55,831 nt of DNA from Promethearchaeota archaeon (GTDB lineage Archaea; Asgardarchaeota; Lokiarchaeia; Sigyniarchaeales; SOKP01): positions 1-55,831 of the forward strand of contig SDNL01000001.1 in the NCBI GenBank assembly GCA_004524365.1. Direction: 5' to 3'. Below, piece after piece: positions 25,201 to 50,782 of the stretch. Made by a program: the position numbers and the translations under genes. The notes under the pieces are model-generated. The model was given only the letters and a program-made list of their open reading frames with translations. It did no database searches and was not told where the DNA came from. Each line of letters starts with the position of its first letter. The first letter of the stretch is position 1.

Positions 25201-26097
25201 ATGGGCTTTAAAAAAATGAAAAAAGCATATAATGCATCTGCAAAAATAATGGAGAAACGGATGGAAAAGGAACGCCCAGAAGACTTTCAAATTTTAAAAA
25301 AAGTTTCTAAATCATCTATTGTGATAGTTAAAGGAACATACGATAAAGTGGAATTAGTTTTAGATCTTATTAATATTCCATATCTCTTAATAGATTCTAA
25401 TCAATTTAATCAAATTGAACTAAATCCTAACCAAATTCTAATAATTAACTGTCCCGGAAACGGTATGGAAGAAAGTCTTACTAAAATTAAGGATTTTGTT
25501 AAACAAGGAGGCTTCTTATTTACAACCGATTGGGCTTTATCAACAATTTTAGAACAAATCTTCCCTGATTTTTTAAAATATAATCAAAGACCAACGCAAG
25601 ATGATTGCGTCGCAGTTGAAATAGTTGATAAAAATAATAAATTTCTTGAGGGAATATTTAAAGCTGATGAAAAACCAATTTGGTGGTTAGAAAGTTCCTC
25701 CTATCCTATTCAAATATTAGATCCTAAAAAGGTTCAAATATTGGTCAAAAGCGAGGAAATGAAGCAAAAATATGGTCAAGATCCTATTGTTATTACTTTT
25801 AACTATGGAGATGGTGGGACCGTTTTACATATGACCAGCCACTACTATCTTCAGCGTTCTGAATTACGGACAAACCGTCATATGAAATCAGCTGCAGACT
25901 ATGCTATGGAGGAGATGGCTTTTTCAAAAGAAGAAGTAATGGAAATCGAAAAAGAACTTAATGGTGTGTCATTAGGAGAGGCTGAATCAGCATATTCTAC
26001 AACCCAGTTTCTCGGTAATGTTATTATTGAGCAACAGAAAAAAGTGAATAAACGATTGACTAAAAAGAAATCAGTTGAAAATAAAGAATCCAAATAA
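25201..26097 (+). CDS. Hypothetical protein (possibly a class-I glutamine-amidotransferase-like / ThuA-like fold)
   Basis: ILIINCPGNG...IKDFVKQGGFLFTTDWAL is reminiscent of GATase1-like folds, but I see no catalytic motif. The coding call rests on ORF length and position. Confidence 0.35.
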   Translation: MGFKKMKKAYNASAKIMEKRMEKERPEDFQILKKVSKSSIVIVKGTYDKVELVLDLINIPYLLIDSNQFNQIELNPNQILIINCPGNGMEESLTKIKDFVKQGGFLFTTDWALSTILEQIFPDFLKYNQRPTQDDCVAVEIVDKNNKFLEGIFKADEKPIWWLESSSYPIQILDPKKVQILVKSEEMKQKYGQDPIVITFNYGDGGTVLHMTSHYYLQRSELRTNRHMKSAADYAMEEMAFSKEEVMEIEKELNGVSLGEAESAYSTTQFLGNVIIEQQKKVNKRLTKKKSVENKESK

Positions 26098-26213
26098 TTC
26101 ACCTTTTTTTCTTTTCCTTAAGAAAATTGTATTAACGAAAAAGAAGATATAAAAAAACAAATATTATTATTATTTTTATAATCATACAATAAGTATTTTA
26201 TAATGATTTTAAT

Positions 26214-27773
26214 TTGCCCATCAAAGTCCTAATTGCTGAAGATTCTGCTTTTGTAAGAAAAAAAATTTCACAAATATTATCATCTAATAATTTAATAGAG
26301 GTTGTTGCAGCGGCAAAAAATGGAGAAGAAGCAGTCGAATTAACATTAAAGTATCTTCCCGATGTCCTAATCTTGGATCTATTAATGCCGAAGATGAATG
26401 GATTAGAAGCATTTAAGAGAATTATGAATGAATACACGGTTCCCACTATAATTTTATCTAGCATGGGACCTAGCAATTTAGATTCATCTATCCAAGCACT
26501 TATAATTGGTGCCTTTGATTATATAATGAAGCCGGGTACTCTTAAAGGGGAAAGTCTAACTCATTTCAAAGATATTTTAATTGATAAAGTAAAACTAGCA
26601 TCTAAATCCCACTTTAAAAGAGCAGATGATAAAAATGAGAAAAAATTTACCCAAATATCCCCCCGGCAAAAATTAGTCAATGAAATATTTGAATTTGGAC
26701 GATTTTTAAAAAAAATTGAGTCATCTGATAAGTCAAATTCAAAGACAAAACTCAAAAATATAGAAGATTTGAATTCAGTTCAAAAGAATGTCCCTCTTTC
26801 CGAATTTAAGCGTCATAAAAAGAATAAAAAAGAAAAAAAAAGAGTTCCAAAAAACATAGAAAAAGATTCTAAGGATGTAAAAAAACCTAAGAATAAAACA
26901 TCAATTAAGAATAAAAACGGGAAAAAGAAAGAATTATTAAAAAAAACCAAAACTTTTAAAGAAAGCGAAAACAATGCCAAAGAAAATAAGAATGGTAAAA
27001 GAAAATATGATAACTATTCTAAGTCTGTGAAGCAAACTTCAAAAGAAACTCCAATACTTAGTGGGAATTTAAAAAAATCTAATTTATACCCAGATCAAAT
27101 AAGTAAAGATATTAATTTAGAAAATAAAGATAAAAAAACATCTCTTACAGCGATTGATCTTCTCTCAAATAGAAATTTTCAAAAATCAAATATAAAAATA
27201 CATAGGAAATTAATAGTTATAGGTGCATCTGTGGGCGGCCCCCAAACAATTAAAACAATCCTAAAAAAACTCCCTAAGGATTATCCATTCCCAATTATCA
27301 TTGTGCAACATCTAAATTCAAAATTTATCAAACCATTTGCACAATCCATGGACGAATTATGTCCAATAAAGGTAAAGGTTGCTGAACACAATGAATTAAT
27401 AAAATCAAGTGTTGTATATATTGCCCCTGGAGAAAAGCATATTAAAGTATCCACAAAAAATCATTATCCAAGTATAAAAATATTTAATGATATTTCTATT
27501 AATTTTTGCAAACCTTCAATTGATATATTATTTATTTCGGCTTCACAAGTATATAAAAATCGGGTAGTAGGGATTTTACTAACAGGTATGGGTAAAGATG
27601 GGGTAAAAGGAATAAAATACATTTACAACAATAATGGATTTACGATATCTGAATCAGAAGAAACTGCTATTTTATATGGGATGCCAAAATTTGCAGTTGA
27701 AAAGGGTGTGGTAAACAAGAGCTTACCAATTGATAAAATTTCCGAATTACTAATTAGATATTCTAATACATAG
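26214..27773 (+). CDS. cheB: CheB methylesterase with receiver domain and an unusually long Lys-rich linker
   Basis: N-terminal REC domain (VLIAEDSAFVRK...LILDLLMPKMNG...). C-terminal esterase with GASVGGP (Ser), QHLN (His) and GMGKDG (Asp). About 200 aa of K/N/S-rich sequence lies between them. TTG start. Confidence 0.85.
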   Translation: MPIKVLIAEDSAFVRKKISQILSSNNLIEVVAAAKNGEEAVELTLKYLPDVLILDLLMPKMNGLEAFKRIMNEYTVPTIILSSMGPSNLDSSIQALIIGAFDYIMKPGTLKGESLTHFKDILIDKVKLASKSHFKRADDKNEKKFTQISPRQKLVNEIFEFGRFLKKIESSDKSNSKTKLKNIEDLNSVQKNVPLSEFKRHKKNKKEKKRVPKNIEKDSKDVKKPKNKTSIKNKNGKKKELLKKTKTFKESENNAKENKNGKRKYDNYSKSVKQTSKETPILSGNLKKSNLYPDQISKDINLENKDKKTSLTAIDLLSNRNFQKSNIKIHRKLIVIGASVGGPQTIKTILKKLPKDYPFPIIIVQHLNSKFIKPFAQSMDELCPIKVKVAEHNELIKSSVVYIAPGEKHIKVSTKNHYPSIKIFNDISINFCKPSIDILFISASQVYKNRVVGILLTGMGKDGVKGIKYIYNNNGFTISESEETAILYGMPKFAVEKGVVNKSLPIDKISELLIRYSNT

Positions 27774-27871
27774 CTATACAAAGTAAAGGAATTGAACGAT
27801 TTAAGATAAATCTCATATATATAACAAAAACATATGTTTTTAAGTATGTTCTATATTATTTTTGTAGAAAT

Positions 27872-29986
27872 ATGAGATACGAAATAATCGAAGGTGTTAA
27901 TATTATTCAACCCTTAGAAATGGATTCCGATATTTATGATAAAATCATTCTAAAATTGGAAACTGAGACTCATATCAAATTTAAGTATTATCAAAATAAT
28001 TATGTGATAAAAAGAATCAAATCAAGAATAAATTCTTTGAATTTATCTTCTGATGGAGCTTATTATGATTATTTAAAGAATCACCCAGATGAAATCGATC
28101 TTTTCTTAGATAATTTTACTATTAATTATTCTTACTTTTTTAGAAACTTTAACGTTTTTCAAGAAATAAAGAAATTGATAGAAAATGCGGGATTAACTCA
28201 ACAAGACACTATAAGAATATGGTCATGCCCTTGTGCTTCTGGTGAGGAGCCATATTCCTTGGCGATATTATTTGAAGAGTTAAAAAATGATAAGAAAAAT
28301 TTTCCTAATTATGAAATTATAGGTTCGGATATCAATCCAAACGCTATAAAAAAAGCAAGATTAGGAATTTACGGCGAACATGCTTTGAGTGAGATACCTG
28401 AAAAAATAAAGAAAAAGTACTTTGAAAGACTTTCAGAAAGTTCTTTAAAATATAAACTGATAAAAAAAATAAGAACTAAAGTAAGATTTATTAATGAAGA
28501 TATTACTTTAGGCCATCAAAAGTCTCAAAAATACGATATAATATTATGTAGAAACTTTATAATTTATATAGATAATATTTACCGAAAAGAACTCCTTAAG
28601 AATCTCAAAATGGTTTTAAAAGAGCAAGGTATATTAATACTAGGTAAAACCGAAAAAATTAGACAAGACAATGCTCTTGAAATCATTGATCCAATTAATC
28701 AATTTTATATCCATAATTCAGAAAATGTAAATGATAAATATCCATATAAATCTCTTTTATTTAAAAAAAATGAACAAAAAAGAATTTCAAAACCTCTAAA
28801 TCTAAAATTACAGAGTAGAGAATTCAAAACAAGAGAAAAATCAAATAAAAAACACCTACAAACAAGAAAAACTAAAAAACAAATTGAACAAAAGAGAGAG
28901 AAAAAGAATGATAAAAATGAAAATGATAATAAAAATTCAATAAAATTAATTAAACCTAATAAAGCCAAAGTCAAAAATGATAAAATTGTAGAATTAGAAC
29001 TAGAATCAGAACCCAATAAAACTACATATACATTAAATGAATTCAATGACAAATTTGCAAACCAAAAAATAAAAGGTTCTCAAGAAAAATTAGAAATCCA
29101 AGGTGAGTCTTCTGAACAAATCCAAGAGAATTTAAAAAAATTAAAAGAAAAGATTGATAAGGAAATCTTTTATCTTGACCAGCAGAGAGATGATTTAAAT
29201 AATAAAATATCAATTTTCCAAAAAAAACAAAAAGATTTTCAATTAGAAAAAGAACAATTTATTCGAAAAAAATTATTTTTTAAGCAACAAAAGAAACAAT
29301 ATGAAAAGGAATTAAAATGGTTTCAAAAACAAAAAAATCAGTTCGAGACTAATAGAGAACGATTTAAAGTTAAAAGAATTCAATTTTTAAAGGAGAAACG
29401 GAAATTTGAATCACGATTGCACAATAATAAAAAAAATAATGATAACATTAAAAAATTTGAAGAAAAAAAGAGATCTCTTAAGGAATATATATTACCTCTT
29501 GGGAGCCATATCTTACTTTCTCAAAATGATAATAGACTTGGAATAGGACTTTTAAGTTTATATGGGTTGGGAAGTAGCTATGTGTTAATTTTAGTTGATT
29601 CTGTTATCAAAGTATATAGCATGGCTCATATTTTATTTTCTAAACCAAAAAATAAAATACAAATGCCCGAGGAAGTATCAGCAATTGAAAAACCACATCA
29701 ATATGCTTCCCTATGTGTACCCTATTTGATAAAGAGAATGCTAGTGAAAGGGGCCTCAGAAAAAATGATCTCTGCTTATATTATTGGAGGTGCTCAGTTA
29801 TTCAATAAAAAATATGAGTCTATTATGGAAACTTATAATATTCTTAAAGAAAAATTGTCAGCATATAATATAGAACTTCTTAATTCAGATATAGGGGGAA
29901 AATCACGCCGTATGATAAAATATAACCTTAATGAAGAAAAATTATATTTAAGAACTGAGGATGAAAAATCCTTTAAACCCTTATAG
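27872..29986 (+). CDS. cheR: CheR methyltransferase fused, via a basic coiled-coil linker, to a CheD-like domain
   Basis: The N-terminal ~285 aa form a CheR domain (FFRN..., WSCPCASGEEPYSLAILF, ILCRNFIIY). The C-terminal ~170 aa align by eye to T. maritima CheD (GLGSSYVLIL..MAHILFS..IIGGAQLF..SDIGGKSRRMIKYNL..KLYLR). Confidence 0.8.
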   Translation: MRYEIIEGVNIIQPLEMDSDIYDKIILKLETETHIKFKYYQNNYVIKRIKSRINSLNLSSDGAYYDYLKNHPDEIDLFLDNFTINYSYFFRNFNVFQEIKKLIENAGLTQQDTIRIWSCPCASGEEPYSLAILFEELKNDKKNFPNYEIIGSDINPNAIKKARLGIYGEHALSEIPEKIKKKYFERLSESSLKYKLIKKIRTKVRFINEDITLGHQKSQKYDIILCRNFIIYIDNIYRKELLKNLKMVLKEQGILILGKTEKIRQDNALEIIDPINQFYIHNSENVNDKYPYKSLLFKKNEQKRISKPLNLKLQSREFKTREKSNKKHLQTRKTKKQIEQKREKKNDKNENDNKNSIKLIKPNKAKVKNDKIVELELESEPNKTTYTLNEFNDKFANQKIKGSQEKLEIQGESSEQIQENLKKLKEKIDKEIFYLDQQRDDLNNKISIFQKKQKDFQLEKEQFIRKKLFFKQQKKQYEKELKWFQKQKNQFETNRERFKVKRIQFLKEKRKFESRLHNNKKNNDNIKKFEEKKRSLKEYILPLGSHILLSQNDNRLGIGLLSLYGLGSSYVLILVDSVIKVYSMAHILFSKPKNKIQMPEEVSAIEKPHQYASLCVPYLIKRMLVKGASEKMISAYIIGGAQLFNKKYESIMETYNILKEKLSAYNIELLNSDIGGKSRRMIKYNLNEEKLYLRTEDEKSFKPL

Positions 29987-30096: not shown

Positions 30097-30900
30097 TTGA
30101 TTTTAAAAATGGAATTACTTCAACAAGCAGAAAAGGATTATAAAAACTGGGGAAATTTTCTTGATATTTCGGGATTTATGGATAAAATAACGACAAATCT
30201 TTCCGAAAAAGGCTTTGAGCGTGGAAACTCCCGTCTTGTTTATAGTGTATGTCCTGATGATGTCAATAGATTGCAAGACTTAAATACAATAGAAAAAGCA
30301 CTTACAAGTGAATATAACAACGAATTTCATTTGGGCGGCCTAGGTGCATACCCTATGGGCGGAGTATCTGGGATAATTGCTGCAAGTCATCACCCTCCTG
30401 ATAGAATTCTAAATGGTGATAGGCGCGGCGGTAATTTAATCTTTTTTATAAGCCCTCATTTCGGTCTTATCGAAAAAGAGAATTACCTCTATGGAAAAAT
30501 TATCAGACCAGGTCAACAAAAAATTACAAGTTCATGTGGTGCAATGATGGGCTTTTTAGATGCTTTAAAAACAGCGGGTAGTCCAAATAATTTTGATATT
30601 ACGCCCGACCCACATACTTTAGACCCTACTCGGATGGTATTACACTCTGAACTCATCAATAATTACTCGGATTGGCTCAATAATATTCTTCAAATGGATG
30701 ATCCTAATGATCAGGTGATTGATCTCTTTAAGTTAAATTACGATTTAGTAATTAATAAGATAGATGAAATGATAGAGGAATTTTTAACATTAGAAGGGGA
30801 TCACTTCGAAGGTGATATCGCAGTAATCGGAGGAGTTACTGTCAATACAGTATCTGGTGACAATTTTATTCTAAAAGAAATTAAATTTCCCAAAATCTAA
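30097..30900 (+). CDS. Hypothetical protein; tentative LCIB/LCIC-like (beta-carbonic-anhydrase-fold) family member
   Basis: Candidate metal ligands are spaced like a beta-CA-type site: VCPDDVNR (Cys/Asp), SPHFG (His) and SSCGAM (Cys). This rests on recollection of the family only. TTG start; an ATG lies at 30109. Confidence 0.3.
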   Translation: MILKMELLQQAEKDYKNWGNFLDISGFMDKITTNLSEKGFERGNSRLVYSVCPDDVNRLQDLNTIEKALTSEYNNEFHLGGLGAYPMGGVSGIIAASHHPPDRILNGDRRGGNLIFFISPHFGLIEKENYLYGKIIRPGQQKITSSCGAMMGFLDALKTAGSPNNFDITPDPHTLDPTRMVLHSELINNYSDWLNNILQMDDPNDQVIDLFKLNYDLVINKIDEMIEEFLTLEGDHFEGDIAVIGGVTVNTVSGDNFILKEIKFPKI

Positions 30901-31053: not shown

Positions 31054-32550
31054 ATGATAACTCAAGGCTTAGCGAAAATTATTGAATCAAGTTCTAATGA
31101 AATTAACTTATTTTATAAAAAAATTGATGAATATTTCAAAGGTAATATGTTAAAAAATATACAAAAATTACCTCTTAATGCTAATGATCCTAAAGAAGTA
31201 TTAAAATCTCTGGTTTCATTAATTTATGATATATTAAGAGATTTGAGTTTTTCAGAACAAGAAATAGAATGTCATTTTTCTTCACTTTGGAAAAGCAATA
31301 TAGAAGATCAGTTAGGAAATAAGAAGGAAATTATGGAGATATATGAGATTTTGTCGCCACTGCTTTATAAACTCTTCCTAGATAAAATCATTAATTACTT
31401 GGCGGATACAAAATCAAATTCTCATATGGCAAAATTAAAGTCTGAGAACTTCTTACCGATTGAATTTATAATAAAATTGAAAGAATTAAGAAAATTTTTT
31501 AATCAAAATTTGGAGAAAAAGGATAGATTACAAAAATATTTGCAAATACAAAATAAAATCTTACAAAAATTAATTAATAATCAAGAAAATATTGAGAAAT
31601 TTCAACAATTGAATGATCCAAGAGATAGAATCCAATTATCCTACATCATGTATCGTATCATAGAATTTTTCAATTTGGAAGGAATGTTTGATTTTTCTCC
31701 TATCCAGGATTACATTAAAGAACATCCGGAACAATGGTTGGATACAATCCCATTAGTTTCATTAAAAAATCCCGATATTTATTACTGTGGGATCTATCTC
31801 ATTAATAAACTTATTATTCCAATGGATATGAATGATGTAAAATACTTCCTTTTAAATATGTATGACGAATGCATTGACGAATTTGAAGCCCCACTCATAG
31901 AAGCTACAAATCAAGTTTATTTCTTTTTTAAGTCCTCTTGGATGGCAAGGCTAGAGCTTTCTAACAGACAAAATAAAGAACTACTCAAAGGAGATAAAGT
32001 TTATTATACCACATCCTATCTTAGAAATCTCGAAACTTCTCAATTAGTTCTAATTTTAAGAGTATATAATCATTTAGATTTATTTGATAAATTGGATCAA
32101 GATAAAATTAAGCCGATTACCAATGAAATAGAGAGAAGAGTCTCGGAAAAGGGGATTAAACAATTTCGGGATGGTTTTATCTCTGCAGAAGCTACATACC
32201 ATGTCTTATTTTATAAATATATGAGAAATAGTTTAGAAGGACTTCAAACCCAAAAGATTTTGGATAATATTATTTCTCGTATTTATAGAAATCTACAACT
32301 TATTGATTTTTCAGAAGATATTAATTATGACTTGCTCACTGAATTGTTTTATGCATGTCAGAGCCTTCAATTATTAAATTGTATCGAAAATGAGTCTATG
32401 GTGGAACTACTTGCTAAGCATCTTTTCCCAACAAGGGTCCTTCAAAAATTTATAGATTCTGATGAGACCCCTACTTTCAATAACTCAAAACTTTTTGAGC
32501 TCAAGATATCAAAAGATACAGGCGACCTTATTCATGAAATTAGGCACTGA
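31054..32550 (+). CDS. Hypothetical all-helical protein
   Basis: A long ORF (498 aa) with local codon usage. I recognise no catalytic motif. The C-terminal half has recurrent aromatic-rich helices (IYYCGIYLINKL, VYFFFKSS, ATYHVLFYKY, LFYACQSLQLL). Confidence 0.4.
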   Translation: MITQGLAKIIESSSNEINLFYKKIDEYFKGNMLKNIQKLPLNANDPKEVLKSLVSLIYDILRDLSFSEQEIECHFSSLWKSNIEDQLGNKKEIMEIYEILSPLLYKLFLDKIINYLADTKSNSHMAKLKSENFLPIEFIIKLKELRKFFNQNLEKKDRLQKYLQIQNKILQKLINNQENIEKFQQLNDPRDRIQLSYIMYRIIEFFNLEGMFDFSPIQDYIKEHPEQWLDTIPLVSLKNPDIYYCGIYLINKLIIPMDMNDVKYFLLNMYDECIDEFEAPLIEATNQVYFFFKSSWMARLELSNRQNKELLKGDKVYYTTSYLRNLETSQLVLILRVYNHLDLFDKLDQDKIKPITNEIERRVSEKGIKQFRDGFISAEATYHVLFYKYMRNSLEGLQTQKILDNIISRIYRNLQLIDFSEDINYDLLTELFYACQSLQLLNCIENESMVELLAKHLFPTRVLQKFIDSDETPTFNNSKLFELKISKDTGDLIHEIRH

Positions 32551-32585: not shown

Positions 32586-33236
32586 TTAAATTGATTTGAT
32601 CTTTTTGACTACTTCTCGAAGTTGTAAACTTCCCATCCCTAATCTTATCTCTTTAGAGAAAATTAAAATGAGAATAACTTCATAATCTTCTGCTAAATTA
32701 GTAAAGATTGAACATACCTTTTGTTTGTTCTCTAACTCAAGAAACATTTTCCTAACCTTTATCAATTTTTTTTGATTTCTTACTTCAAATTCTTTAATAG
32801 TATTTAATAATGTCTTATGTGGGAGGGAAGAGTAGAGAACCTTACCTGTAACCGTTAATAAAGCACTTCCAATAACCTCTTTATCATCAACACACTCTCT
32901 TAAAATATATAAAATATCTTCGAAGATATCCAAGGAGTTGAGATTTTGATCCATCGAATTTACCGATTCTTGAGTTTTTCCTTCAAAAAATTCCATTTTT
33001 GAGAATTCAAAATCAATTTTTTGATATCCTCGAGGTACATAATTTTTATCAATATAAACCTGGAAGCTGTGCCCGCAAATCAATCCTTTCGGAACTGAAA
33101 CAGTCGTTAACTGCTTACTTTCATTAATTATTTTAGAGGGGATCATAAGATGATCCTTTTTATCACAAACAGGACATTTTATCAATGTCTCTGTATATTG
33201 ATTACCCTCTGTGCTTGTATCTTTTTCACTTATCAT
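32586..33236 (-). CDS. Zinc-ribbon protein with C-terminal Roadblock/LC7-like domain (paralogue of 50171..50782)
   Basis: CPVC...CGHSF ribbon followed by RGYQKIDF. The C-terminal EVIGSALLTVTGKVLYSSLP...EVILILIFSKEIRLG fits a Roadblock-like pattern by eye. Confidence 0.5.
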   Translation of the reverse strand: MISEKDTSTEGNQYTETLIKCPVCDKKDHLMIPSKIINESKQLTTVSVPKGLICGHSFQVYIDKNYVPRGYQKIDFEFSKMEFFEGKTQESVNSMDQNLNSLDIFEDILYILRECVDDKEVIGSALLTVTGKVLYSSLPHKTLLNTIKEFEVRNQKKLIKVRKMFLELENKQKVCSIFTNLAEDYEVILILIFSKEIRLGMGSLQLREVVKKIKSI

Positions 33237-33809: not shown

Positions 33810-33810
33810 T

Positions 33811-42146: not shown

Positions 42147-43004
42147 ATGAATTATCAATATTACAAAACATTAATGGACAAATCTGAGGAGAATTTATTT
42201 TTCTTAATTGAGAAAATAGTACCTGCACCTTTAAAGGAAGAATTAGGTCTTTTTTTAGAAGGATTTAACCTTGGAAAAATTAAAAAATCTTCTCTTGAAG
42301 AGAATTTTATTCAGATTAATCCATTAAACAAAAATTATGCTGACTTATCTAAACTCAATTCCCAACAATTAAAGGAAATATACGAAACTTTCATTAGTAG
42401 AGAAAAAAACGATAAAAAGGCGGTAAAATGGAGATTGCTCCGGTATTTGAGAATTCAAAAAGATATACAATTAGAAACACTTCACATTAATGTTGATATG
42501 AATGAAGATAATGCAGTGGATATAATCTTCGAAACTAAAAATCATAAGTATTACTTTATAAATTGTAGTTATATTCTAGAAAAGGAATATTATTACAATT
42601 TAATAGAAAAACTTATCGCCTTTTCTAAAAAAATTAACCTTAAACCTGAAAAAATCGTATTTTCTGCTCATAAAACCTATAGAGATATTCCTTATAAAGA
42701 AGATATTCAAGTAGGTAATATAAAATATGAGATAGAAAAAGAAATCTGGGTAGAATGGACAGAATTAGAAAAACCTTTTAATGGGGAAGATCTTCTTCTA
42801 ATCCTGAGTAATAATGAAAAAGATTTAGAACTTGCGGGATTTAATTTTACCAGCATCCAAACATTGTTGGATTATGTGTATAGATATTCTAAAGGAGGAC
42901 AAATTGCTATATATAAACAGCCTGGGTTTTTCTCGGCAAAAAGTAATGAAAATCCTCAAATTGAATTAATTTGGAAAGGAATTATGTTAAAAAATAAAAT
43001 TTAA
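42147..43004 (+). CDS. Hypothetical protein between cheA and cheC (CheF-like role possible but not recognised)
   Basis: A 285-aa ORF with a Shine-Dalgarno motif and tight operon spacing. I could identify no motif. Confidence 0.45.
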   Translation: MNYQYYKTLMDKSEENLFFLIEKIVPAPLKEELGLFLEGFNLGKIKKSSLEENFIQINPLNKNYADLSKLNSQQLKEIYETFISREKNDKKAVKWRLLRYLRIQKDIQLETLHINVDMNEDNAVDIIFETKNHKYYFINCSYILEKEYYYNLIEKLIAFSKKINLKPEKIVFSAHKTYRDIPYKEDIQVGNIKYEIEKEIWVEWTELEKPFNGEDLLLILSNNEKDLELAGFNFTSIQTLLDYVYRYSKGGQIAIYKQPGFFSAKSNENPQIELIWKGIMLKNKI

Positions 43005-43033: not shown

Positions 43034-44977
43034 ATGAGAAATATGGTAGAGACATTATCTGACAGTAAAAATATAAATGTTGTAATAATTGGAATAAAAA
43101 GTGAGAAATATCTAATAAAAGTAGAAAAAGTAAAGGAAATATATGTTCCAAAGGATAATATAGTACCTATCCCATTAGCAGATAAAACAATTACAGGTGT
43201 AATCGATATTAGGGGAGAAGTCTATTCTATTTTATCTTTGAGAAAAAAAATATATGATGAGGAAAATCTCCATCATATTCATAAAGATAATCGAGTGCTA
43301 TTATTAGAAACTAATGGTGTAAATCTTTCAATACTTGTTGATGAAGTAATAGGCGTTAAAGAAATTCCAACTTCGGTTTTTAATCATGGTGCGCCAATTA
43401 TTGAAACCGATCTTGATATAAAATTCATTGAATCCGTTGCAATTATTGAAGAAAATACCTATATTCTATTAGATATCGATGCCTTCATTAAAAGTTTCAA
43501 TATTGATTTAAACTATAATAGGATTGAACCAATTTCGCCTTCGCGAAAAGAAACTAAGGGAGGAAGTTCCAATATAAGTATTGAAACAAAAAGACCGGAT
43601 ACATCTCCCATATCCTCTAGTGAAACTTACGAAATAGGAGGAAAATTATCTGAATTAAAAGATAAAATTAAATTAAATCCTGAACAAGAGGATATGCTTA
43701 AAGAGATTGGAAATATTGGCTCAGGAAATGCAGTGACTGCACTTTCTCGATTGATTAAGAAGAAAATTGATATCGATTTAACTAATGTTGGAATTGTTTC
43801 CTTTGACAATTTGACGGATCAATTTGGAGGTCCAATGGAAAAAGTATGCGGAATATTCTCCCAAATTAAGGGGGCGCCCCAATCATCGATCCTCCAAGCT
43901 TTTGAGCTGAAACCGCTAATGAAATTGATTTCATCTTTAATTGGTGATGATTCTCAAATAGATCCAGAAAATGTATCATCTAAAAAGGATCTTGATGACT
44001 TTGCGATCTCAACTATTACTGAAATGGGAAATATATTAGCGGGTCATTATGCATCTGCTTTAGCAGATTTGACGGGAACTAAAATGATGATCAATGTCCC
44101 TGAGTTTTCTGTTAGTGATATCGGTTCAATTGGGAAATTTTTAAGCCAAGAATTAAAAACAATCTATACATATATAGTGGTCATAAAAACATCAATTAAG
44201 GTTGTAGACTATGAATTAAATGGAGTATTTCTTTTCATTCCTGGCTTGGATACACTTTATAAATTCTTTGATCAGTTGGGAATCAATTATAAACCACAAG
44301 AATCATCAAGAAAATTCCATAAGAAATCTTTAAATTCGGATAATTTAGAACTTACAGAAATTCAAAGAGATGCTCTTCAAGAAATTGGTAATATTGGTTC
44401 TGGTAATGCCGCAAATGCTTTAGCTAAAATGGTGAATCAAAAAGTAACAATTGCTATTCCAAAGGTAGAAATGATGACTATTGATAAATTTTCTAAGAAG
44501 TTACAAACAAATGATAACCTATATACATCTTGGAGTAATGTAAAAGGGAAAACTCGCGCAACGGTGTTAACAATTTTCCAAATATCTGATATCATTGAAA
44601 TAACTGCTATTCTAACTGATGATAAGAAGAAAAAACAATTGGATCTCAGAAAAAAGTATGATAGCGTGGAAAAGTTCCCCGAAATGTATCAAAGTGCTAT
44701 GAGTGAGCTAGGAAATATTCTAGCTTCAAATTACGTATCCTCGCTCGGAGATCTCTTAGATATTCGATTAATGACGGACCCTCCTGATATGATCATAGAT
44801 ACGAAAGAACAGTTATTTACAAATTTAAGAGACCAAATTGGATTTCTAGAAAAATTATCTTTAGTAATAACTACTGCTGTTATAATCACTGATATCAAAA
44901 TAGAAGGAGCCTTTTTATTTGTTCCTGAAATAGAAACTCTACATGAACTTCTAAAAGCGCTTGAAAAGTTCTATTAA
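43034..44977 (+). CDS. cheC: CheW-like domain fused to two CheC-type phosphatase domains
   Basis: N-terminal CheW-like domain (YLIKVEKVKEIYVP...ITGVIDIRGEVYSILSLRKKI). Then two CheC units, each with LKEIGNIGSGNAVTAL / LQEIGNIGSGNAANAL and E-x2-N-x22-P-type sites (TEMGNILAGHYASALADLTGTKMMINVPEF; SELGNILASNYVSSLGDLLDIRLMTDPPDM). Confidence 0.75.
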   Translation: MRNMVETLSDSKNINVVIIGIKSEKYLIKVEKVKEIYVPKDNIVPIPLADKTITGVIDIRGEVYSILSLRKKIYDEENLHHIHKDNRVLLLETNGVNLSILVDEVIGVKEIPTSVFNHGAPIIETDLDIKFIESVAIIEENTYILLDIDAFIKSFNIDLNYNRIEPISPSRKETKGGSSNISIETKRPDTSPISSSETYEIGGKLSELKDKIKLNPEQEDMLKEIGNIGSGNAVTALSRLIKKKIDIDLTNVGIVSFDNLTDQFGGPMEKVCGIFSQIKGAPQSSILQAFELKPLMKLISSLIGDDSQIDPENVSSKKDLDDFAISTITEMGNILAGHYASALADLTGTKMMINVPEFSVSDIGSIGKFLSQELKTIYTYIVVIKTSIKVVDYELNGVFLFIPGLDTLYKFFDQLGINYKPQESSRKFHKKSLNSDNLELTEIQRDALQEIGNIGSGNAANALAKMVNQKVTIAIPKVEMMTIDKFSKKLQTNDNLYTSWSNVKGKTRATVLTIFQISDIIEITAILTDDKKKKQLDLRKKYDSVEKFPEMYQSAMSELGNILASNYVSSLGDLLDIRLMTDPPDMIIDTKEQLFTNLRDQIGFLEKLSLVITTAVIITDIKIEGAFLFVPEIETLHELLKALEKFY

Positions 44978-45088: not shown

Positions 45089-45613
45089 ATGCCAAATATT
45101 AAATATAGAGAAAAAATATTTCAAGTGGTTGGAGAAAATATAAAGCCAAATCCAAAAACCATTTTTAATCCTGAGGAAGTTTATCTATTTATTGATGAAA
45201 ACCTTAATGTGATATGGATCTGGGCTGGTGAGAAATCAAAACTATTTCATAGATACATTGCATCCTCATGGGCTGGTAAATTAAAGAGTAAAAAACAGTA
45301 TTTTAATTACAATTATGAACTTGTGAAACAAGGAAGGGAACCAAAAAAATTCAAAGTAATTATTGATGAAGTAGAAGAAGGAAGATCAGATCTGAATTAT
45401 CCCGGAGAATCTAGGACTCTTGAAATTAGTGTCAAATCCAAATCTAAAAATGATTTACATTCAAATCGATATTCACAAAAAATACCAAATAAAAAGGTTG
45501 CTAAAATTACAGCCATTCTCTCTGAAGTTCAAGAAATGCAAAGTCATATTAGATATTCTCTAGAACATATAGGAAAGCGCATTAGAAAGATAGATGAAAT
45601 TTTGAATAGTTAA
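45089..45613 (+). CDS. Single gelsolin-domain protein with C-terminal helical tail
   Basis: FQVVGENIKP......EVYLFIDENLNVIWIWAGEKSKLFHRYIASSWAGKLKS....ELVKQGREPKKF follows the gelsolin-repeat pattern (l..v.g....v...l.s.d.yiLd....iy.W.G..as..e...a...a..l......i..v.eg.Ep..F). Confidence 0.55.
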   Translation: MPNIKYREKIFQVVGENIKPNPKTIFNPEEVYLFIDENLNVIWIWAGEKSKLFHRYIASSWAGKLKSKKQYFNYNYELVKQGREPKKFKVIIDEVEEGRSDLNYPGESRTLEISVKSKSKNDLHSNRYSQKIPNKKVAKITAILSEVQEMQSHIRYSLEHIGKRIRKIDEILNS

Positions 45614-45672: not shown

Positions 45673-46626
45673 ATGATAAATTCATCACTTTTAGATACTT
45701 TACTTGAAAATTTTCTAAATCAAGTTAATGATTTAACTGCCGTGTTGGTTGTCGATGCAGATGGACTTATAATCGCTCAAGAATCAACCAAAGACTTTGA
45801 TGAACAAATAATCGCTGCCATTATGGCTATTCTGGATCAAACAATAAATAAGATTAAGAAATATGCCGAAACTTCCTTTGGGAGTGGGACTCTAGATACT
45901 AATGAATTCCGCTTGTTTTATTTAGAATTAGGAGGAGATTTCCCTGTTATATTCGTAATAGTAACCGATTCGTACACAAATATCGATAAATACATCCCTT
46001 ATTCATACCTAGTCGCCGAAAAAGTATCTCTCTTAATAAATAATACAAATGATATTAATGTTAGACTTCCAGAACTCCTTGAAAATGGAGAATTAAGATT
46101 TAATTCTTGCAAGAGTTCTAACAAACGTACCAAGAATTATATTTTGGTAATTGGTCCTCAAAAAGTAGGGAAAACGGCATTAGTAAATAAATATACAAAT
46201 AATGCATTTATTGAACATTATAAACCAACTATAGGATTATCAATAGTTAAAAAAGAACTTCAAATCTCTAAGAAAATTCAATCTATTCTTTATCTATTTG
46301 ATATGGGTGGATTTAAGGCATTTGGTAAAGTAAGGAAGCATTTTTATGAATCGATTGATATTAAAACAATAGTACTTGTTTTTGATTATTCCAAAGAATC
46401 TACTTTAGATAAAATTAATGATTGGTTTTATGAAGTCAATTTATTTAATAAACAAGAAAGCATTCAATATGTTTTAGTTGGAAATAAAATTGATAAAATT
46501 GATTATAGAGAGGAAATTAGAAAAAAAGCTGAGAATATAGCAAATGAATATAATTGTAGGTTATATGAGACATCCGCTCTTACAGGACAGGGTATTGATG
46601 AACTATTTATGAATATAGCCTTTTAA
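45673..46626 (+). CDS. Roadblock/LC7 domain fused to a Ras/Rab-like small GTPase
   Basis: The N-terminal VNDLTAVLVVDADGLIIAQES...IAAIMAILDQT...FPVIFVIVTD is a classic Roadblock/MglB-like pattern. The C-terminal G domain has G1 GPQKVGKT (46153..46176), G2 PTIG, G3 DMGGF (46300..46314), G4 GNKID and G5 ETSA. Confidence 0.75.
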   Translation: MINSSLLDTLLENFLNQVNDLTAVLVVDADGLIIAQESTKDFDEQIIAAIMAILDQTINKIKKYAETSFGSGTLDTNEFRLFYLELGGDFPVIFVIVTDSYTNIDKYIPYSYLVAEKVSLLINNTNDINVRLPELLENGELRFNSCKSSNKRTKNYILVIGPQKVGKTALVNKYTNNAFIEHYKPTIGLSIVKKELQISKKIQSILYLFDMGGFKAFGKVRKHFYESIDIKTIVLVFDYSKESTLDKINDWFYEVNLFNKQESIQYVLVGNKIDKIDYREEIRKKAENIANEYNCRLYETSALTGQGIDELFMNIAF

Positions 46627-46674
46627 TTATAATATTTTCTCTAATTTTAAGTTAAAATGCAATGAAAATTTGAA

Positions 46675-48756
46675 TTGATGCCAATAAAGATGAATAAAAA
46701 AATTAACGCCGTGAAAGCCAAGTTTATTAATCCAATAAAAGAACTTAGTATTCCAACTTTCATTATTGACTCAAATCATAACGTAATTGAATGGAATAAA
46801 GCCATTAAGAACTTGACAGGAGTAAGGCGAAAGGAGATACTTGGCACTTCTAATGCTTGGAAGGCCTTTTATTCAGAAAAGCGCCCTACTTTAGCAGATC
46901 TCTTACTGGATGGAAAGATAGAAGAGATAGAAACATATTTTCAAAACTTTTCAAAGGCAAAGCATTGTCTTAGAGGTTATACTGCTGAGAAATGGCTTGA
47001 AATAAATTATGAGAGATTATATCTTATCATGACTGCTACCGCAATTCTGGATAAAAAAGGGGAGATCATTCAAATTATACAAACAATTGAAGATAGGACA
47101 GAATCAAAACATATAAAGGATAGAAAAGAGTTTTTAAATTCAATATTTCGGCATGATGCAAATAATATGATAAATGTATGCCACGGGTTTCTCAAATTAT
47201 TGGAAAAAACTGAATTAACAGAAGTGCAGAAGGACTATCTTCAAGAAGCTATTAATGCTTCGCGTGGAGTAATCAGCATCATTGAAAAAGTAAGTAAACT
47301 TCAAAAAGTTGGAAGGGAAGAGACTCAAGACCTGTCATTAGGGGATTTAATTCAAGAAATTGTAAATAAAAATCAATTCCAAGCAAAGGAAAAAGGTATT
47401 ACGATTGAAGTATGTCTTCCAGAATTTAGCTCAAATGTCCAAGCAGGGGAATTGCTTGAAGATGTGTTTATTAATATAATTGGAAATTCATTGCAACATA
47501 GTCAATGCGACAAAATTAAAATCTCGGGAAGAGAAAGTAAGGATGCAATTATTTGTTGTATTGAAGATAATGGAAAGGGAATAAAAGAAGAAGATAAAGA
47601 AATGATATTTAATCAAGGATTTAAGAGAGGAAAAAGTGCTGGATCAGGATTGGGGTTATTTCTTGTTAAAAAGATTACTAATAATTATGGGGCGAAAGTT
47701 TATGTAAAGGATTCTCAACTTGGTGGTGTGAAATTCGAAGTTCAATTAAAGAAGAGTAAAGGAAGACCAGAAAAAAGAAGAAATTCATTATCTCAAATTG
47801 AAAATGATTTTCATCTCACAGAAGATTCTTTACTTAATAATGAACATCATCTCCAAAATTTAATTGTTGTGGTCGATGATAATTTACAATTTTTAACCTA
47901 TATGAAAGTTTTACTAGAAAATTATGATTACAAAGTGGAAACTTTTAGAAGTGCTGTAAATGCCTTATCATATATTGAAAATCAGGACTATCACTCTATT
48001 CCTGATCTTATTATTTCTGATATACGCATGCCAGAACTCTCAGGATATGAATTCTTTAAGAATCTTTCTTCTAATCCAAAATTAAATCGCATTCCTTTTA
48101 TATTCCTTTCTGGGTTGAGCTCGAAGGATGATATTAGATTAGGAAAATATCTTGGAGCTGATGATTATATTACCAAACCGGTTTATGAAGAAGATATCCT
48201 TGCTTCGATTAAAGGAAAACTCCGTAGAAAAAAAGCAGGGAGCGTGTTTGAAACGGAAATTGATAAATATTTAAATTTAGAACAAAAGCGAGACAATAAA
48301 CTTGAAAATATGAAGTTTGATGAGGAAATCGTTCTTTTTTTGATATTTTGGGATGATAAAAAAGGTCCAAAATTAATTGAACAATATCCTGAGAAAAGCA
48401 GAATTTCACTTTCTGTTGATAAACTTGGTACTCAAATATTTCAAGCAATCGTTCCAATATATGGGCAATCAAAAAATATTGTAAATGCGGAAGATGTATT
48501 ATTTAGAATCGAAAATATCAATAAACATGCGTATCTTTACTTTGATGCATTTTATGATGAGTCAAAGCGATCTAAACAGACAGAATTTATGCTTTCAGTA
48601 ATCGCTCCAACGATAAGTTATTTTGAATCATTAAAATTAAAAAAAATATTATCTAATCTCTCAAATATATTAAAAGAAGATAACGACACGAAAAAAATAA
48701 ATTTCAGGCAGTATTGGAAAGACATTTTAGGCATTTTAAGTAAATTTGAAAATTAA
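46675..48756 (+). CDS. Hybrid sensor kinase: PAS - HisKA - HATPase - REC - extra C-terminal alpha/beta domain (longin/Roadblock-like, tentative)
   Basis: H-box FRHDANNMINV, N-box NIIGNSLQHS, G-boxes EDNGKGI / GSGLGLFLVKKI. REC domain (VVVDDN...LIISDIRMPELSGY...ITKPV). The final ~150 aa (IVLFLIFWDDKKGPKLIEQYPE...) have no kinase-related motif. TTG listed; ATG at 46678. Confidence 0.8.
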   Translation: MMPIKMNKKINAVKAKFINPIKELSIPTFIIDSNHNVIEWNKAIKNLTGVRRKEILGTSNAWKAFYSEKRPTLADLLLDGKIEEIETYFQNFSKAKHCLRGYTAEKWLEINYERLYLIMTATAILDKKGEIIQIIQTIEDRTESKHIKDRKEFLNSIFRHDANNMINVCHGFLKLLEKTELTEVQKDYLQEAINASRGVISIIEKVSKLQKVGREETQDLSLGDLIQEIVNKNQFQAKEKGITIEVCLPEFSSNVQAGELLEDVFINIIGNSLQHSQCDKIKISGRESKDAIICCIEDNGKGIKEEDKEMIFNQGFKRGKSAGSGLGLFLVKKITNNYGAKVYVKDSQLGGVKFEVQLKKSKGRPEKRRNSLSQIENDFHLTEDSLLNNEHHLQNLIVVVDDNLQFLTYMKVLLENYDYKVETFRSAVNALSYIENQDYHSIPDLIISDIRMPELSGYEFFKNLSSNPKLNRIPFIFLSGLSSKDDIRLGKYLGADDYITKPVYEEDILASIKGKLRRKKAGSVFETEIDKYLNLEQKRDNKLENMKFDEEIVLFLIFWDDKKGPKLIEQYPEKSRISLSVDKLGTQIFQAIVPIYGQSKNIVNAEDVLFRIENINKHAYLYFDAFYDESKRSKQTEFMLSVIAPTISYFESLKLKKILSNLSNILKEDNDTKKINFRQYWKDILGILSKFEN

Positions 48757-48908: not shown

Positions 48909-49844
48909 TTGATTCAAACTATGAAAAGTCTAAAGCTAATAATTGCAGGTTTAGATTATGCTGGGAAGACAAGTTCCATTATTGCTCTTAGAGAAAAATA
49001 TAATTTTTACGAAAAAGTGGAAAATTTGAAGCCCACGGTCAAGATTGAATATAGTAGTTTCAACTTTCTCAATCAATGGGAAGTTAATATTTGGGATATG
49101 GGTGGACAAGAGAAGTATAGACAAATTTATTTAGATAAACCAGAATATTTCGCAGATACAAATTATTTCTATTATTATATTGATATTCAAGATGAAAAAA
49201 AGATCTCCGAATCAATTAATTATTTTGAAGAATTATTAACAATTTTGAAAGATTTTAATTATTCTAATAAAATAATAATCTGTTTTCACAAATATGACCC
49301 AAAATTAAGAAGAAATAAAGATATTCTTGAAAGAATTACAAGTGTAAAGAAAAAACTTAAACAAAATGAACATTTTGAGTTTAAATTCTTTAGAACTTCA
49401 ATTTTTGATATTTCAACTCTTTCTAAAGCAATCTCATATTCATTAAATAGCTTAATTGATTTTAGTGTTTTAAAGCTAATTTTAAAGGGATTAATTCGAA
49501 AATTTAATGGAAATTATGCAATTTTATATACTGATTCAGGTGTGATACTTGTTGATTTTTATAAAGAAATTTTAGATTCGATTGAATATGAAGAGAAAGT
49601 ACGTCAATCAATTAACCGTGACCTTGTACTCATTCAAAAATTGAAGGATGATAATGTTGAATTCAATGAACGAGTAGATTATGATGAAGAGATTAAATAT
49701 TTAAAAAAATATGAGATTGGGGACAATATTTTCTTTCTAAAGATGAACGCTCCAAAAATGAGAGAGGAAAAAATACAATTATTGAAAAATAACTTTCAAA
49801 ATTTCGAAAACGACCTCCAAGAGATATTTTCAAATAATTCGTAA
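48909..49844 (+). CDS. Rag/Gtr-like (Arf-related) small GTPase with C-terminal Roadblock-like domain
   Basis: G1 GLDYAGKTS, G2 PTV, G3 WDMGGQEKYR (49092..49109). G4 is HKYD (49287..49298), the HKxD variant characteristic of Rag/Gtr GTPases rather than NKxD. The C-terminal ~125 aa (GNYAILYTDSGVILVDFYKE...) look Roadblock-like. The 311 aa length is close to eukaryotic RagA. TTG listed; ATG at 48921. Confidence 0.65.
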   Translation: MIQTMKSLKLIIAGLDYAGKTSSIIALREKYNFYEKVENLKPTVKIEYSSFNFLNQWEVNIWDMGGQEKYRQIYLDKPEYFADTNYFYYYIDIQDEKKISESINYFEELLTILKDFNYSNKIIICFHKYDPKLRRNKDILERITSVKKKLKQNEHFEFKFFRTSIFDISTLSKAISYSLNSLIDFSVLKLILKGLIRKFNGNYAILYTDSGVILVDFYKEILDSIEYEEKVRQSINRDLVLIQKLKDDNVEFNERVDYDEEIKYLKKYEIGDNIFFLKMNAPKMREEKIQLLKNNFQNFENDLQEIFSNNS

Positions 49845-49853
49845 GGAGTTTGC

Positions 49854-49910
49854 TTTTTTTATTTTAATTATTTTTATCTCATTTTTATCTCATTTTTATC
49901 TCATTTTTAT
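49854..49910 (+). terminator. Oligo-T tracts downstream of the Rag-like gene (probable archaeal intrinsic terminator region)
   Basis: A T7 run at 49854..49860 lies 10 nt after the stop codon, followed by four T5 runs within an 11-bp tandem repeat. Archaeal RNA polymerase terminates at oligo-dT stretches. Confidence 0.4.
49870..49910. repeat. 11-bp tandem repeat, ATTTTTATCTC x about 3.7
   Basis: Read directly: atttttatctc atttttatctc atttttatctc atttttat. Confidence 0.85.
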
Positions 49911-50156
49911 TGCTCTGCTATTTCTTCTTCCTCATAGTCTGGAGATTACATTGGTAGAACAAATATCATATCTTTTAACCATTTATTAGTAATCATAAAT
50001 GATTTTTTGTTTTGCTCAGATTTAAAAACAAAGACTATTATTAATTATTCTGAATTGACCAGTTAAAACTGTTGATATTTATTACAAATAATACACCAAA
50101 AAATTTTTAATATTAATTATGTGTCAATTCACAACTATTATAAGGGTTATTAATAA

Positions 50157-50162
50157 AGGAGG
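50157..50162 (+). promoter_or_regulatory. Shine-Dalgarno-like AGGAGG, 8 nt upstream of the ATG at 50171
   Basis: The sequence aataaAGGAGGtattcttaATG. Confidence 0.45.
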
Positions 50163-50170
50163 TATTCTTA

Positions 50171-50782
50171 ATGTTGGTAAATATTTTATGTCCGTATTGT
50201 AAGAAAATGTTTCGAAAGGAAATTACAAATACAAAAAAATCTGGGACTCTTTATTCCACACTAATAAAGGCCCAAGATGGACATGAAGGATGTGGTGCAT
50301 TTTTAGCATTTATCGATAATAACGGAATGCATCGGGGCTCTCAAAAAATTGATCATATTGAAGAAGCACATTCCGAAAATGAAACTTATATTAATCAAGC
50401 ACTTAAAAATATAAATGAATTGGATGAAAAAATTAGATTCTATCATCTTAAAATCCCTAAAACAAAATTCAAACGTTCCTTTGAGTATAAAGTGGCCAGC
50501 GTAAAGGATAGGGCATTTATGAGTTCACGCACTTATAAAGGCTTATTTAATTTTGTTAAAGATTGTAGGAATGATAATATGTTTGGAATGCTTTCTTTAG
50601 ATTCGGATGCTGAACTTGATGGCTCATTAGTCTATGGAAAATATATGGGGTTACTCTATGTTCTCTATTGGAATAATCAAAAAAAAATAAGAAATAGTTC
50701 TTGGGATGAAATCAAAGGCTATACCAATCTTACTGTTGAAAAACTTATTGAGTTGTACGAATTGATCGATTTATTCTTTTAA
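50171..50782 (+). CDS. Zinc-ribbon protein, paralogue of 32586..33236
   Basis: CPYCKKMF...GCGAFLAFIDNNGMHRGSQKIDH aligns with CPVCDKKD...CGHSFQVYIDKNYVPRGYQKIDF. The C-terminal alpha/beta region is possibly Roadblock-like. Confidence 0.5.
   Translation: MLVNILCPYCKKMFRKEITNTKKSGTLYSTLIKAQDGHEGCGAFLAFIDNNGMHRGSQKIDHIEEAHSENETYINQALKNINELDEKIRFYHLKIPKTKFKRSFEYKVASVKDRAFMSSRTYKGLFNFVKDCRNDNMFGMLSLDSDAELDGSLVYGKYMGLLYVLYWNNQKKIRNSSWDEIKGYTNLTVEKLIELYELIDLFF

Follow-up and report, generated by a model that had tools for sequence, protein, structure and literature searches.

A chemosensory array with eukaryote-like accessory genes

The window analyzed here, a 55,831-nucleotide (nt) stretch of contig SDNL01000001.1 from the metagenome-assembled genome of a Promethearchaeota archaeon of the class Lokiarchaeia (GenBank assembly GCA_004524365.1), carries a cluster of chemotaxis (Che) genes interleaved with genes for longin, Roadblock, gelsolin, and small GTPase domains. 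The window has a G+C content of ~30% and encodes TFIIB, GatD/E, fibrillarin, and an archaeal S-adenosylmethionine (SAM) synthetase. Genes were assigned from a listing of open reading frames (ORFs) and by Pfam searches with curated cutoffs, for which 39 window ORFs were scanned. Positions are those of the window, and genes lie on the plus strand unless stated otherwise.

A full chemosensory pathway is encoded together, with all Pfam matches above the curated cutoffs. It comprises a CheA with all five domains (36868 to 38976; Hpt, P2, H-kinase_dim, HATPase_c, and CheW), a CheW (35847 to 36431; E = 2.5e-25), a single-domain response regulator, CheY (36447 to 36845; Response_reg, E = 1e-26), and a methyl-accepting chemotaxis protein (MCP; MCPsignal, E = 2e-29). 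The adaptation and termination enzymes are likewise all present by Pfam, namely CheB (26214 to 27773; CheB_methylest, E = 5e-56; Response_reg, E = 1e-21), a CheR-CheD fusion (27872 to 29986; CheR, E = 3e-44; CheR_N; CheD, E = 1e-13 at amino acids [aa] 604 to 694), and a CheW-CheC-CheC protein (43034 to 44977; CheW, E = 2e-19; CheC, E = 3e-41 in four stretches; CheX) that joins a coupling domain to two phosphatase modules for phosphorylated CheY (CheY-P). The ORF at 25201 to 26097 was considered as cheB and rejected, having neither a family match nor a conserved position.

The remaining members of the cluster are less usual for a Che locus. The first gene of the tight Che unit encodes R272, a tandem longin-domain protein (35022 to 35840), and ends 6 nt before cheW. 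Between cheA and the CheW-CheC-CheC gene lie genes for D1040, a 1,040-aa DUF11/coiled-coil protein (39012 to 42134), and u285, a 285-aa protein with an orphan fold (42147 to 43004). Downstream follow Gel174, a 174-aa protein with one gelsolin domain (45089 to 45613); RobRas, with a Roadblock/LC7 domain and a Rab/Ras-like GTPase domain (45673 to 46626); a hybrid sensor kinase (46675 to 48756); and Rag311, a Rag/Gtr-type GTPase with a C-terminal extension (48909 to 49844). Two zinc ribbon proteins, ZnA216 (32586 to 33236, minus strand) and ZnB203 (50171 to 50782), lie on either side. An earlier note on this DNA, made from the sequence alone, gave largely this gene content and order, which the ORF and Pfam analysis bore out. 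Its short gaps between 35022 and 48756 measured 6 to 111 nt, several starts are preceded by GGAGG or GAGG as it had stated, and its GTPase, longin/Roadblock, and gelsolin assignments hold under profile and structure searches. The gene list itself was incomplete, omitting three genes described below (30097 to 30900, 31054 to 32550, and 33495 to 33809).

Synteny was surveyed by a longin-protein profile scan with one genome per species, which yielded 79 loci, almost all titled as Asgard metagenome-assembled genomes (MAGs). All ORFs at these loci were translated mechanically and then searched with the window's proteins; the homologues all come from MAGs with submitter taxonomy. The longin gene was Che linked in 36 of the 79 species-representative genomes. 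The full array, in the order longin, CheW, CheY, CheA, DUF11, u285, CheW/CheC/CheC, and gelsolin, was colinear in 25 of these 36, with 10 others cut by contig ends and 1 deviating. Hence, the eight-gene array, of which Gel174 is the last gene, is colinear in 25/26 assessable species-level Asgard genomes. Because the arrangement recurs in dozens of genomes, it is far beyond chance. In most genomes, the gelsolin gene is then followed by cheR(-cheD) and cheB.

Distant Asgard Che operons keep a triad of DUF11 protein, u285-like protein, and CheW/CheC. In three of four such operons (L087, L089, and L090), a gene of ~150 aa lies just downstream. Comparison with R272 covered L087 and L089, and both match the R272 longin domain: the L089 protein by phmmer (E = 7e-8) and by hhalign to the second domain (89% probability; E = 2e-6), and the L087 protein by a common motif read in the sequence. 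The same two operons carry Zn-ribbon genes of ~193 aa beside the longin gene, and L087 ends in two tandem Rag-like GTPase genes that are independent of the window's.

Taken together, these loci define an Asgard-specific Che array with conserved longin, DUF11, u285, and Zn-ribbon members, joined in Loki-type genomes by a conserved gelsolin-domain member; some lineages have added GTPases. The supercluster proposed in the earlier note thus resolves into a core that is conserved and genes that were added recently: the longin and gelsolin genes are kept in the Che array in 25 of 26 assessable loci, while the GTPases and the hybrid kinase are limited to the window's close clade. In agreement with that note, we found no published account of such an arrangement. 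What is new is the eukaryote-like accessory set, a family of orphan fold that occurs in Che operons only, and a conserved gelsolin member, for which no description was found. Che-like pathways with nonflagellar outputs are already known, the nearest analogue being Frz-MglA/MglB.

Conserved accessory proteins of the array

R272 has no Pfam match. Its AlphaFold2 (AF2) model (pLDDT of 85.5; alignment of 49 homologues) contains two beta-beta-alpha-beta-beta-beta-alpha-alpha domains, giving the longin strand order twice. Foldseek matched the model to MON1A-CCZ1, Fuzzy-Inturned, TRAPP, adaptor protein (AP) sigma/mu subunits, the Loki Roadblock-Longin structure 8yqg, and LAMTOR/MP1-p14 (E = 3e-5 to 2e-3). 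Nearly all of the 25 matches at an E value of ≤1e-3 were longin or Roadblock proteins. Whole-chain TM-scores were low (0.2 to 0.36 on the query and ~0.2 target normalized, at 7 to 18% sequence identity) because the domain arrangement differs. As modeled, R272 belongs to the longin/Roadblock (LC7) fold superfamily. Where the earlier note had read a tandem Roadblock-like protein, the tandem part stands and the domain topology is instead predicted to be of the longin type. The family is Asgard-wide, with members of about 270 aa.

Among eukaryotic regulators, both R272 domains match Mon1-Ccz1, Fuzzy-Inturned, TRAPP, and Ragulator-Rag components in fold, and the top Foldseek matches are multilongin guanine nucleotide exchange factor (GEF) subunits. 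The locus also recalls Ragulator-Rag in that the neighbors of R272 include a Rag-family GTPase and a fusion of Roadblock and GTPase domains. Tri-longin RabGEFs differ in having three longin domains rather than two, the likeness here being one of fold. A tri-longin RabGEF of the Mon1-Ccz1 type was considered for R272 and rejected, as only two domains fit into 272 aa; a partner subunit was not identified. In contrast to Rag heterodimers, the window holds a single Rag gene, and a heterodimer is not evident.

Paralogues of R272 recur in two other contexts. In the first (L056, 7829 to 14982, and about 12 other loci), a small 277-aa MCP and a 296-aa HisKA-receiver (REC) protein precede the paralogue, with a 175-aa Zn-ribbon gene 3.6 to 8.5 kb downstream. 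In the second, found in about six genomes (L068, 8447 to 12642; L044; L049; L062; L063; and L065), the paralogue sits between a divergent REC-HisKA-HATPase kinase and genes for a single longin protein, a Rag-like G domain of 129 aa, and a Ras GTPase of 175 aa. Thus, the longin family is repeatedly encoded beside phospho-signaling proteins and small GTPases. Separately, in a complete 3.3-Mb Asgard chromosome (CP070831.1; L002/L070, 6805 to 10777), an R272 paralogue lies two genes 3' of an actin-family gene and adjoins a leucine-rich-repeat protein; no che genes occur within 10 kb of it.

D1040 consists of a conserved N-terminal domain (aa 1 to 150), a clade-specific K/E-rich coiled-coil insert (aa ~155 to 535), and a DUF11-type beta-sandwich array of ~500 aa (Pfam DUF11, E = 5e-14), as mapped against orthologues of ~670 aa. 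DUF11 was found in 23/23 orthologues. No signal peptide or transmembrane segment was seen on reading the sequence by eye. An adaptin-like identity is not claimed, since matches were weak (Alpha_adaptinC2 in 4/23 members and Adap_comp_sub in one). The ~380-aa insert, which is present in this clade only, has parallels elsewhere in the cluster: charged low-complexity Lys/Glu/Asn-rich linkers of ~200 aa between the REC and methylesterase domains of CheB (Lys rich) and of ~300 aa between the methyltransferase and the CheD deamidase domain of CheR-CheD (K/E rich). Together they resemble a cluster-wide, lineage-specific expansion of charged linkers.

The neighboring u285 has no Pfam or PDB sequence match. 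Its AF2 model is confident (pLDDT of 87.9; pTM of 0.86), and the best Foldseek match in the PDB, to nuclease-like folds, reached an E value of only 0.05. The family is Asgard-only, with 61 representatives among 1.84 billion proteins, and always lies between the DUF11 protein and CheW-CheC. Its distant relatives are ~260 to 320 aa long and without a Pfam match; of five looked up, four sit in Che operons and the fifth is on a context-free 1-kb contig. Every u285 and DUF11 protein gene seen was part of a Che operon, the four distant ones included. A CheF-like identity for u285 was rejected in view of the missing Pfam and PDB sequence matches and a confident model whose top Foldseek matches (best E = 0.05) include no CheF.

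The Gel174 of the window falls below Pfam detection, and PF00626 is recorded for one family member. Searched against the PDB by phmmer, Gel174 matched 7whf (E = 1.8e-6), ProGel (7c2f; E = 1.6e-5), and CapG (E = 1.9e-4), with 7c2g/h also retrieved. A family profile built from 25 orthologues matched ProGel 7c2f best (E = 8e-7) and also 2DGel3, villin, and CapG. By these sequence matches, Gel174 belongs to the gelsolin/villin superfamily. Its gelsolin domain (aa ~20 to 100) is followed by a variable linker and a conserved amphipathic C-terminal helix (aa ~135 to 174), and the family alignment (A2) has a mean column identity of 63%. Compared with the Asgard gelsolins ProGel, 1DGelX, and 2DGel (Akil et al. 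2020, 2022), sequence similarity is significant over one gelsolin/cofilin-fold domain, while the layout, one domain plus a short variable linker and a conserved helix of ~40 aa in 174 aa, is distinct. Gel174 is much smaller than 1DGelX and lacks a second domain, and the LKDV WH2-like motif was not seen on reading the sequence. Unlike those proteins, it is encoded in a Che operon; the Asgard gelsolin papers mention no Che link.

The Zn-ribbon proteins were correctly recognized as related in the earlier note: ZnA216 and ZnB203 have an N-terminal module in common (BLASTP, E = 3e-8; 27% identity over 135 aa). ZnA216 combines a CxxC...CxH zinc ribbon with a conserved C-terminal alpha/beta domain. 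In its family alignment (A5), the mean column identity is 64%, and C21, C24, C54, and H56 are invariant. The gene is divergently oriented upstream of the longin gene, within 1.5 kb, in 19/33 Che-linked loci. It is directly upstream in most other Che-linked loci, whereas in the window a 104-aa ORF and the MCP gene intervene. Family members gave weak matches only (CpXC in 10/24; MglB at E ~ 1). For a Roadblock fold in the C-terminal domain, the signals were this same MglB match and an hhalign probability of 0.2% against the longin family. A 201-aa gene occupies the place of ZnB203 in the related locus BC1.

GTPase genes, transcription units, and neighbors

RobRas matches Pfam Robl_LC7 (aa 10 to 54; E = 8e-6; 25.9 bits against a cutoff of 23, with partial coverage) and Ras (aa 157 to 316; E = 3e-31; 109 bits). 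Its closest PDB matches are Rab12, a Thor Rab, and Rab7 (E = 1e-20 to 1e-18). The G1, G4, and G5 motifs are intact, and switch II reads DMGGF. As this switch II has no catalytic glutamine, RobRas would probably need a partner to hydrolyze GTP. An N-terminal Roadblock domain joined to a Ras-superfamily G domain is a described Asgard architecture (PMC10933270), and by its sequence RobRas fits this RB-GTPase class (Tran et al. 2024). Rag311 matches Pfam Gtr1_RagA (E = 1e-23; 84 bits against a cutoff of 22) and, in the PDB, 8yl2 (E = 6e-26), human RagA (E = 2e-13), and yeast Gtr1 (E = 2e-11). Its G4 motif, HKYD, is that of RagA/Gtr1 (HKxD), and these matches identify it as a Rag/Gtr GTPase. Similarity to the PDB matches extends to aa ~248 of 311, and the window has one Rag gene versus two in tandem in L087.

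The kinase between them has a PAS-HisKA-HATPase-REC architecture by Pfam and a C terminus of ~160 aa. This C-terminal stretch (163 aa) matched neither the PDB nor the longin profile, so a longin identity for it is without support. Asgard proteins in which longin domains are fused to two-component domains are known (bioRxiv 10.1101/2020.10.19.343400). Like those NPRL2-like longin fusions (Liu et al. 2020/2021), the locus described here genetically wires a eukaryote-type longin module to prokaryotic phospho-signaling. The published cases are domain fusions in a nutrient-sensing context, whereas here the link is operonic, spans a full chemotaxis pathway, and includes a gelsolin-domain protein.

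The distribution of these genes is narrow. Placement of RobRas after the gelsolin gene is restricted to the window, a Logan contig (L001), BC1, BC3, and WJIN01 (WJIN), and the hybrid kinase, Rag GTPase, and ZnB203 are in matching places only in the window and BC1, at ~60% protein identity. In BC3 and WJIN, RobRas stands alone before the ancestral LMWPc-BacA flank. The 3' additions to the array therefore comprise RobRas in the close clade and the kinase, Rag GTPase, and second Zn-ribbon protein in the window and BC1.

Runs of T, which are a rough guide to terminators only, suggest at least three transcription units rather than one. From the longin gene to the CheW-CheC-CheC gene, gaps are 6 to 35 nt with no T5 run, and from the gelsolin gene to the kinase, they are 48 to 59 nt on the same strand without T runs. 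Runs of T7 occur after the MCP gene and within the gaps that precede the gelsolin gene (111 nt) and the Rag gene (152 nt), and several more follow the Rag gene. Because of these positions, we expect separate units for longin to CheW-CheC, for gelsolin with RobRas and the kinase, and for Rag. Just 3' of the Rag stop codon, in a T-rich intergenic region of 326 nt, the 11-nt unit TTTTTATCTCA is repeated three times in tandem (49871 to 49910).

The MCP gene is listed as an ORF at 33661 to 34932. Its start is probably the ATG at 33811, inside that ORF, on account of the preceding ORF's stop and the gene calls of orthologues. The N-terminal ~150 aa of the MCP appear hydrophobic by eye, and MCPsignal was the only Pfam family matched by the protein. 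Directly 5' lies the 104-aa hydrophobic ORF (33495 to 33809), by eye a putative membrane protein; equivalent genes of 92 to 117 aa precede the MCP gene in BC1, BC3, and WJIN. The CheR-CheD fusion is also present in BC1. Between the fusion gene and the MCP gene is a gene for an LCIB-type beta-carbonic-anhydrase-like protein (30097 to 30900; LCIB_C_CA, E = 4e-32), which places a CO2/bicarbonate-related enzyme within a chemosensory cluster. The gene is a conserved neighbor in the window's clade: its position is kept in BC1 and BC3, L003/L005 and L006 have orthologues in the matching place, and the L008 orthologue lies 5 kb upstream. The adjacent gene encodes a 498-aa protein without a Pfam match (31054 to 32550), which has orthologues in L003/L005 and L006 (E ~ 1e-180) and, within the window's clade, remains adjacent to the array.

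Immediately 5' of the cluster is a gene for a sensor kinase of PAS-PAS-HisKA-HATPase architecture (23585 to 25057), and PAS kinases flank the Che array in at least seven other genomes. Flanks elsewhere also contain inositol-phosphate genes. Most other Asgard arrays are flanked by inositol-1-phosphate synthase, two Ins(1,3,4)P3 5/6-kinase-like ATP-grasp genes, BacA, a low-molecular-weight phosphatase, isochorismatase, and two DUF998 genes (e.g., L004/L011, 1 to 8000; L084 to L086, 14500 to 17000). Phosphoinositide (PIP) lipids regulate Asgard profilin, and in light of this regulation, inositol-phosphate chemistry beside a gelsolin-containing operon is of possible interest.

Candidate outputs of the pathway

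We favor, at a probability of roughly 40%, an Asgard-specific chemosensory pathway, here in its Loki-clade version, in which the accessory proteins would couple CheY signaling to a longin/GTPase switch and to actin regulation. Receptor arrays would control CheA, which would phosphorylate CheY. Docking of CheY-P on CheF at an archaellum would not be used or would not be the sole route; the targets of CheY-P would rather be the accessory proteins associated with the array, and in this clade the hybrid kinase would act on them too, through its REC domain. The longin and Roadblock modules could then serve as a platform for small GTPases or as their regulator, GEF-like or GTPase-activating protein (GAP)-like, and the gelsolin-domain protein might locally alter Lokiactin filaments. 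A chemical gradient would thereby bias the growth or the retraction of actin-filled protrusions, resulting in crawling or chemotropism, with CheC, CheD, CheB, and CheR providing the usual signal termination and adaptation. The most novel form of this proposal is a doubtful one: that a chemoreceptor array of bacterial type steers eukaryote-like effectors in Asgard archaea, in that CheY-P, by way of the longin, Zn-ribbon, DUF11, and u285 proteins, sets the Rag/Rab-like GTPases and a dedicated gelsolin and so directs Lokiactin-driven protrusion and crawling.

Published observations supply the surroundings for such a pathway. Lokiarchaeum ossiferum has putative chemoreceptor arrays, and Che genes occur in 27/97 Asgard MAGs, the output being unstated (PMC9834061). 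Loki and Hod archaea crawl on actin-dependent protrusions, with chemotaxis unmentioned, and single-domain gelsolins coprecipitate with Lokiactin in L. ossiferum (bioRxiv 10.1101/2025.11.30.690169). Protein searches turned up no L. ossiferum orthologue of Gel174, and its equation with the coprecipitated gelsolins B35_Gel1/2 could not be confirmed. Papers on Asgard small GTPases and Roadblock proteins, gelsolins, and the neighborhoods of eukaryotic signature proteins do not mention a Che link.

The nearest characterized analogue is the Frz-MglA/MglB system of Myxococcus xanthus. Both systems have a Che-type phosphorelay with a small Ras-superfamily GTPase and Roadblock-fold regulators, and both are implicated in surface motility rather than swimming, here putatively. 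In Myxococcus, frz and mglBA are separate loci linked via the response regulators FrzX, FrzZ, and RomR, whereas here the Che array contains or ends with the longin/Roadblock genes and is accompanied by a gelsolin-domain protein. The GTPases of this locus resemble Rab/Ras and Rag proteins: RobRas best matches Rab/Ras proteins rather than MglA, and the only MglB signal is the insignificant one from ZnA216. The relationship is therefore one of analogy rather than membership.

Several points weigh against the proposed coupling to GTPases and actin. The output is assigned by guilt by association, from gene neighborhood and predicted domains. Most array-bearing genomes lack the GTPases and the hybrid kinase, which therefore cannot be the general output, and the T7 runs before the gelsolin and Rag genes suggest separate transcripts. 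A Gel174 homologue was not detected by profile in L087 and L089, the two distant Che operons tested, so the gelsolin link appears confined to the Loki-type array. ProGel binds actin very weakly (PMC7444086), and a gelsolin fold is no proof of actin binding. Finally, preprints report archaellum machinery in L. ossiferum and in Nerearchaeum, both of which have Che genes.

This last point leads to the most serious rival, which we consider somewhat unlikely: an ordinary motility pathway whose target is an archaellum, or another type IV filament machine, encoded elsewhere. The DUF11, u285, longin, and Gel174 proteins would then be Asgard-specific adaptors standing in for CheF between CheY-P and the motor, and the GTPase genes would be unrelated neighbors. 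The usual route of archaeal Che signaling is via CheF and ArlCDE (PMC9680633). The euryarchaeal systems share the same core of MCP, CheW, CheA, CheY, CheB, CheR, CheC, and CheD with the locus described here, where four other conserved accessory proteins take the place of CheF and arl in the operon. Neither CheF (DUF439) nor ArlCDE was found among the 39 window ORFs, as the earlier note had reported, or in the gene lists of related loci, and an archaellum output would need another adaptor. Consistent with new adaptors, the most deeply conserved triad, DUF11-u285-CheW/CheC, has no cytoskeletal domain, and Ig-like proteins of the S-layer type are known companions of archaellum loci (TFF preprint). 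According to the preprints, L. ossiferum encodes an archaellum machinery, and Nerearchaeum encodes one alongside its chemotaxis machinery.

Other observations sit poorly with an archaellum target. Archaellum families were absent from the 39 window ORFs, from the gene lists of related loci, and from the families displayed in a pooled Pfam scan of 86 flank ORFs, which were those matched by at least two ORFs. In Euryarchaeota, che and arl genes are often adjacent, whereas no archaellum family lies near the array in the loci examined. We know of no role for gelsolin or longin domains at archaella. The TFF preprint calls such machineries rare in Asgard genomes, but at least 36 genomes at species level carry the Che array. 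Moreover, the cryo-electron tomography paper on L. ossiferum does not mention archaella (0 occurrences; PMC9834061), and the motility observed is actin-dependent crawling.

A more improbable alternative makes the accessory proteins structural or localization parts of the chemoreceptor array, perhaps anchoring arrays in protrusions or in the actin cortex, with the real output being diffusible CheY acting elsewhere or the regulation of genes or enzymes. Longin and Roadblock proteins are commonly membrane-anchored platforms, as in Ragulator, and the fold matches of R272 include Ragulator-type proteins. The 6-nt spacing between the longin gene and cheW, the paralogues immediately after MCP genes, and the coiled-coil insert of the DUF11 protein, which varies by clade as scaffolds often do, are all consistent with this role. 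It leaves unexplained the recurrent GTPase neighbors and the use of a filament-regulating fold instead of a simple anchor, and it leaves the pathway without an identified target.

Likewise improbable, although compatible with the other readings, is that the 3' block (RobRas, hybrid kinase, Rag GTPase, and ZnB203) is a recent, functionally independent two-component/GTPase insertion beside the Che array: the block is limited to the window's close clade (RobRas only in BC3 and WJIN), CheR and CheB hold this position in other genomes, T runs set the Rag gene apart, and chance adjacency is plausible in Asgard genomes rich in small GTPases, but the same-strand gaps of 48 to 59 nt from gelsolin to kinase lack T runs, the window and BC1 have both kept the block, with ~60% identity between their proteins, and Rag or Ras genes occur independently in the L087 Che operon (as a pair) and beside longin paralogues.

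For the output of Asgard chemoreceptor arrays, and for the direction of actin dynamics in these cells, this locus and its conserved relatives name candidates: R272, the DUF11 protein, u285, Gel174, the Zn-ribbon proteins, and the Roadblock-Ras and Rag GTPases. If these proteins prove to be archaellum adaptors, they would represent a CheF-independent switch mechanism in archaea. If they link CheY to GTPases and actin, prokaryotic two-component sensing would be joined to the GTPase/cytoskeleton logic of eukaryotic cell migration. If CheY-P indeed governs Lokiactin-driven protrusion and crawling, this would be the first case known of a prokaryote whose actin cytoskeleton is under chemosensory control, and possibly a precursor of the GTPase-based chemotaxis of eukaryotes.

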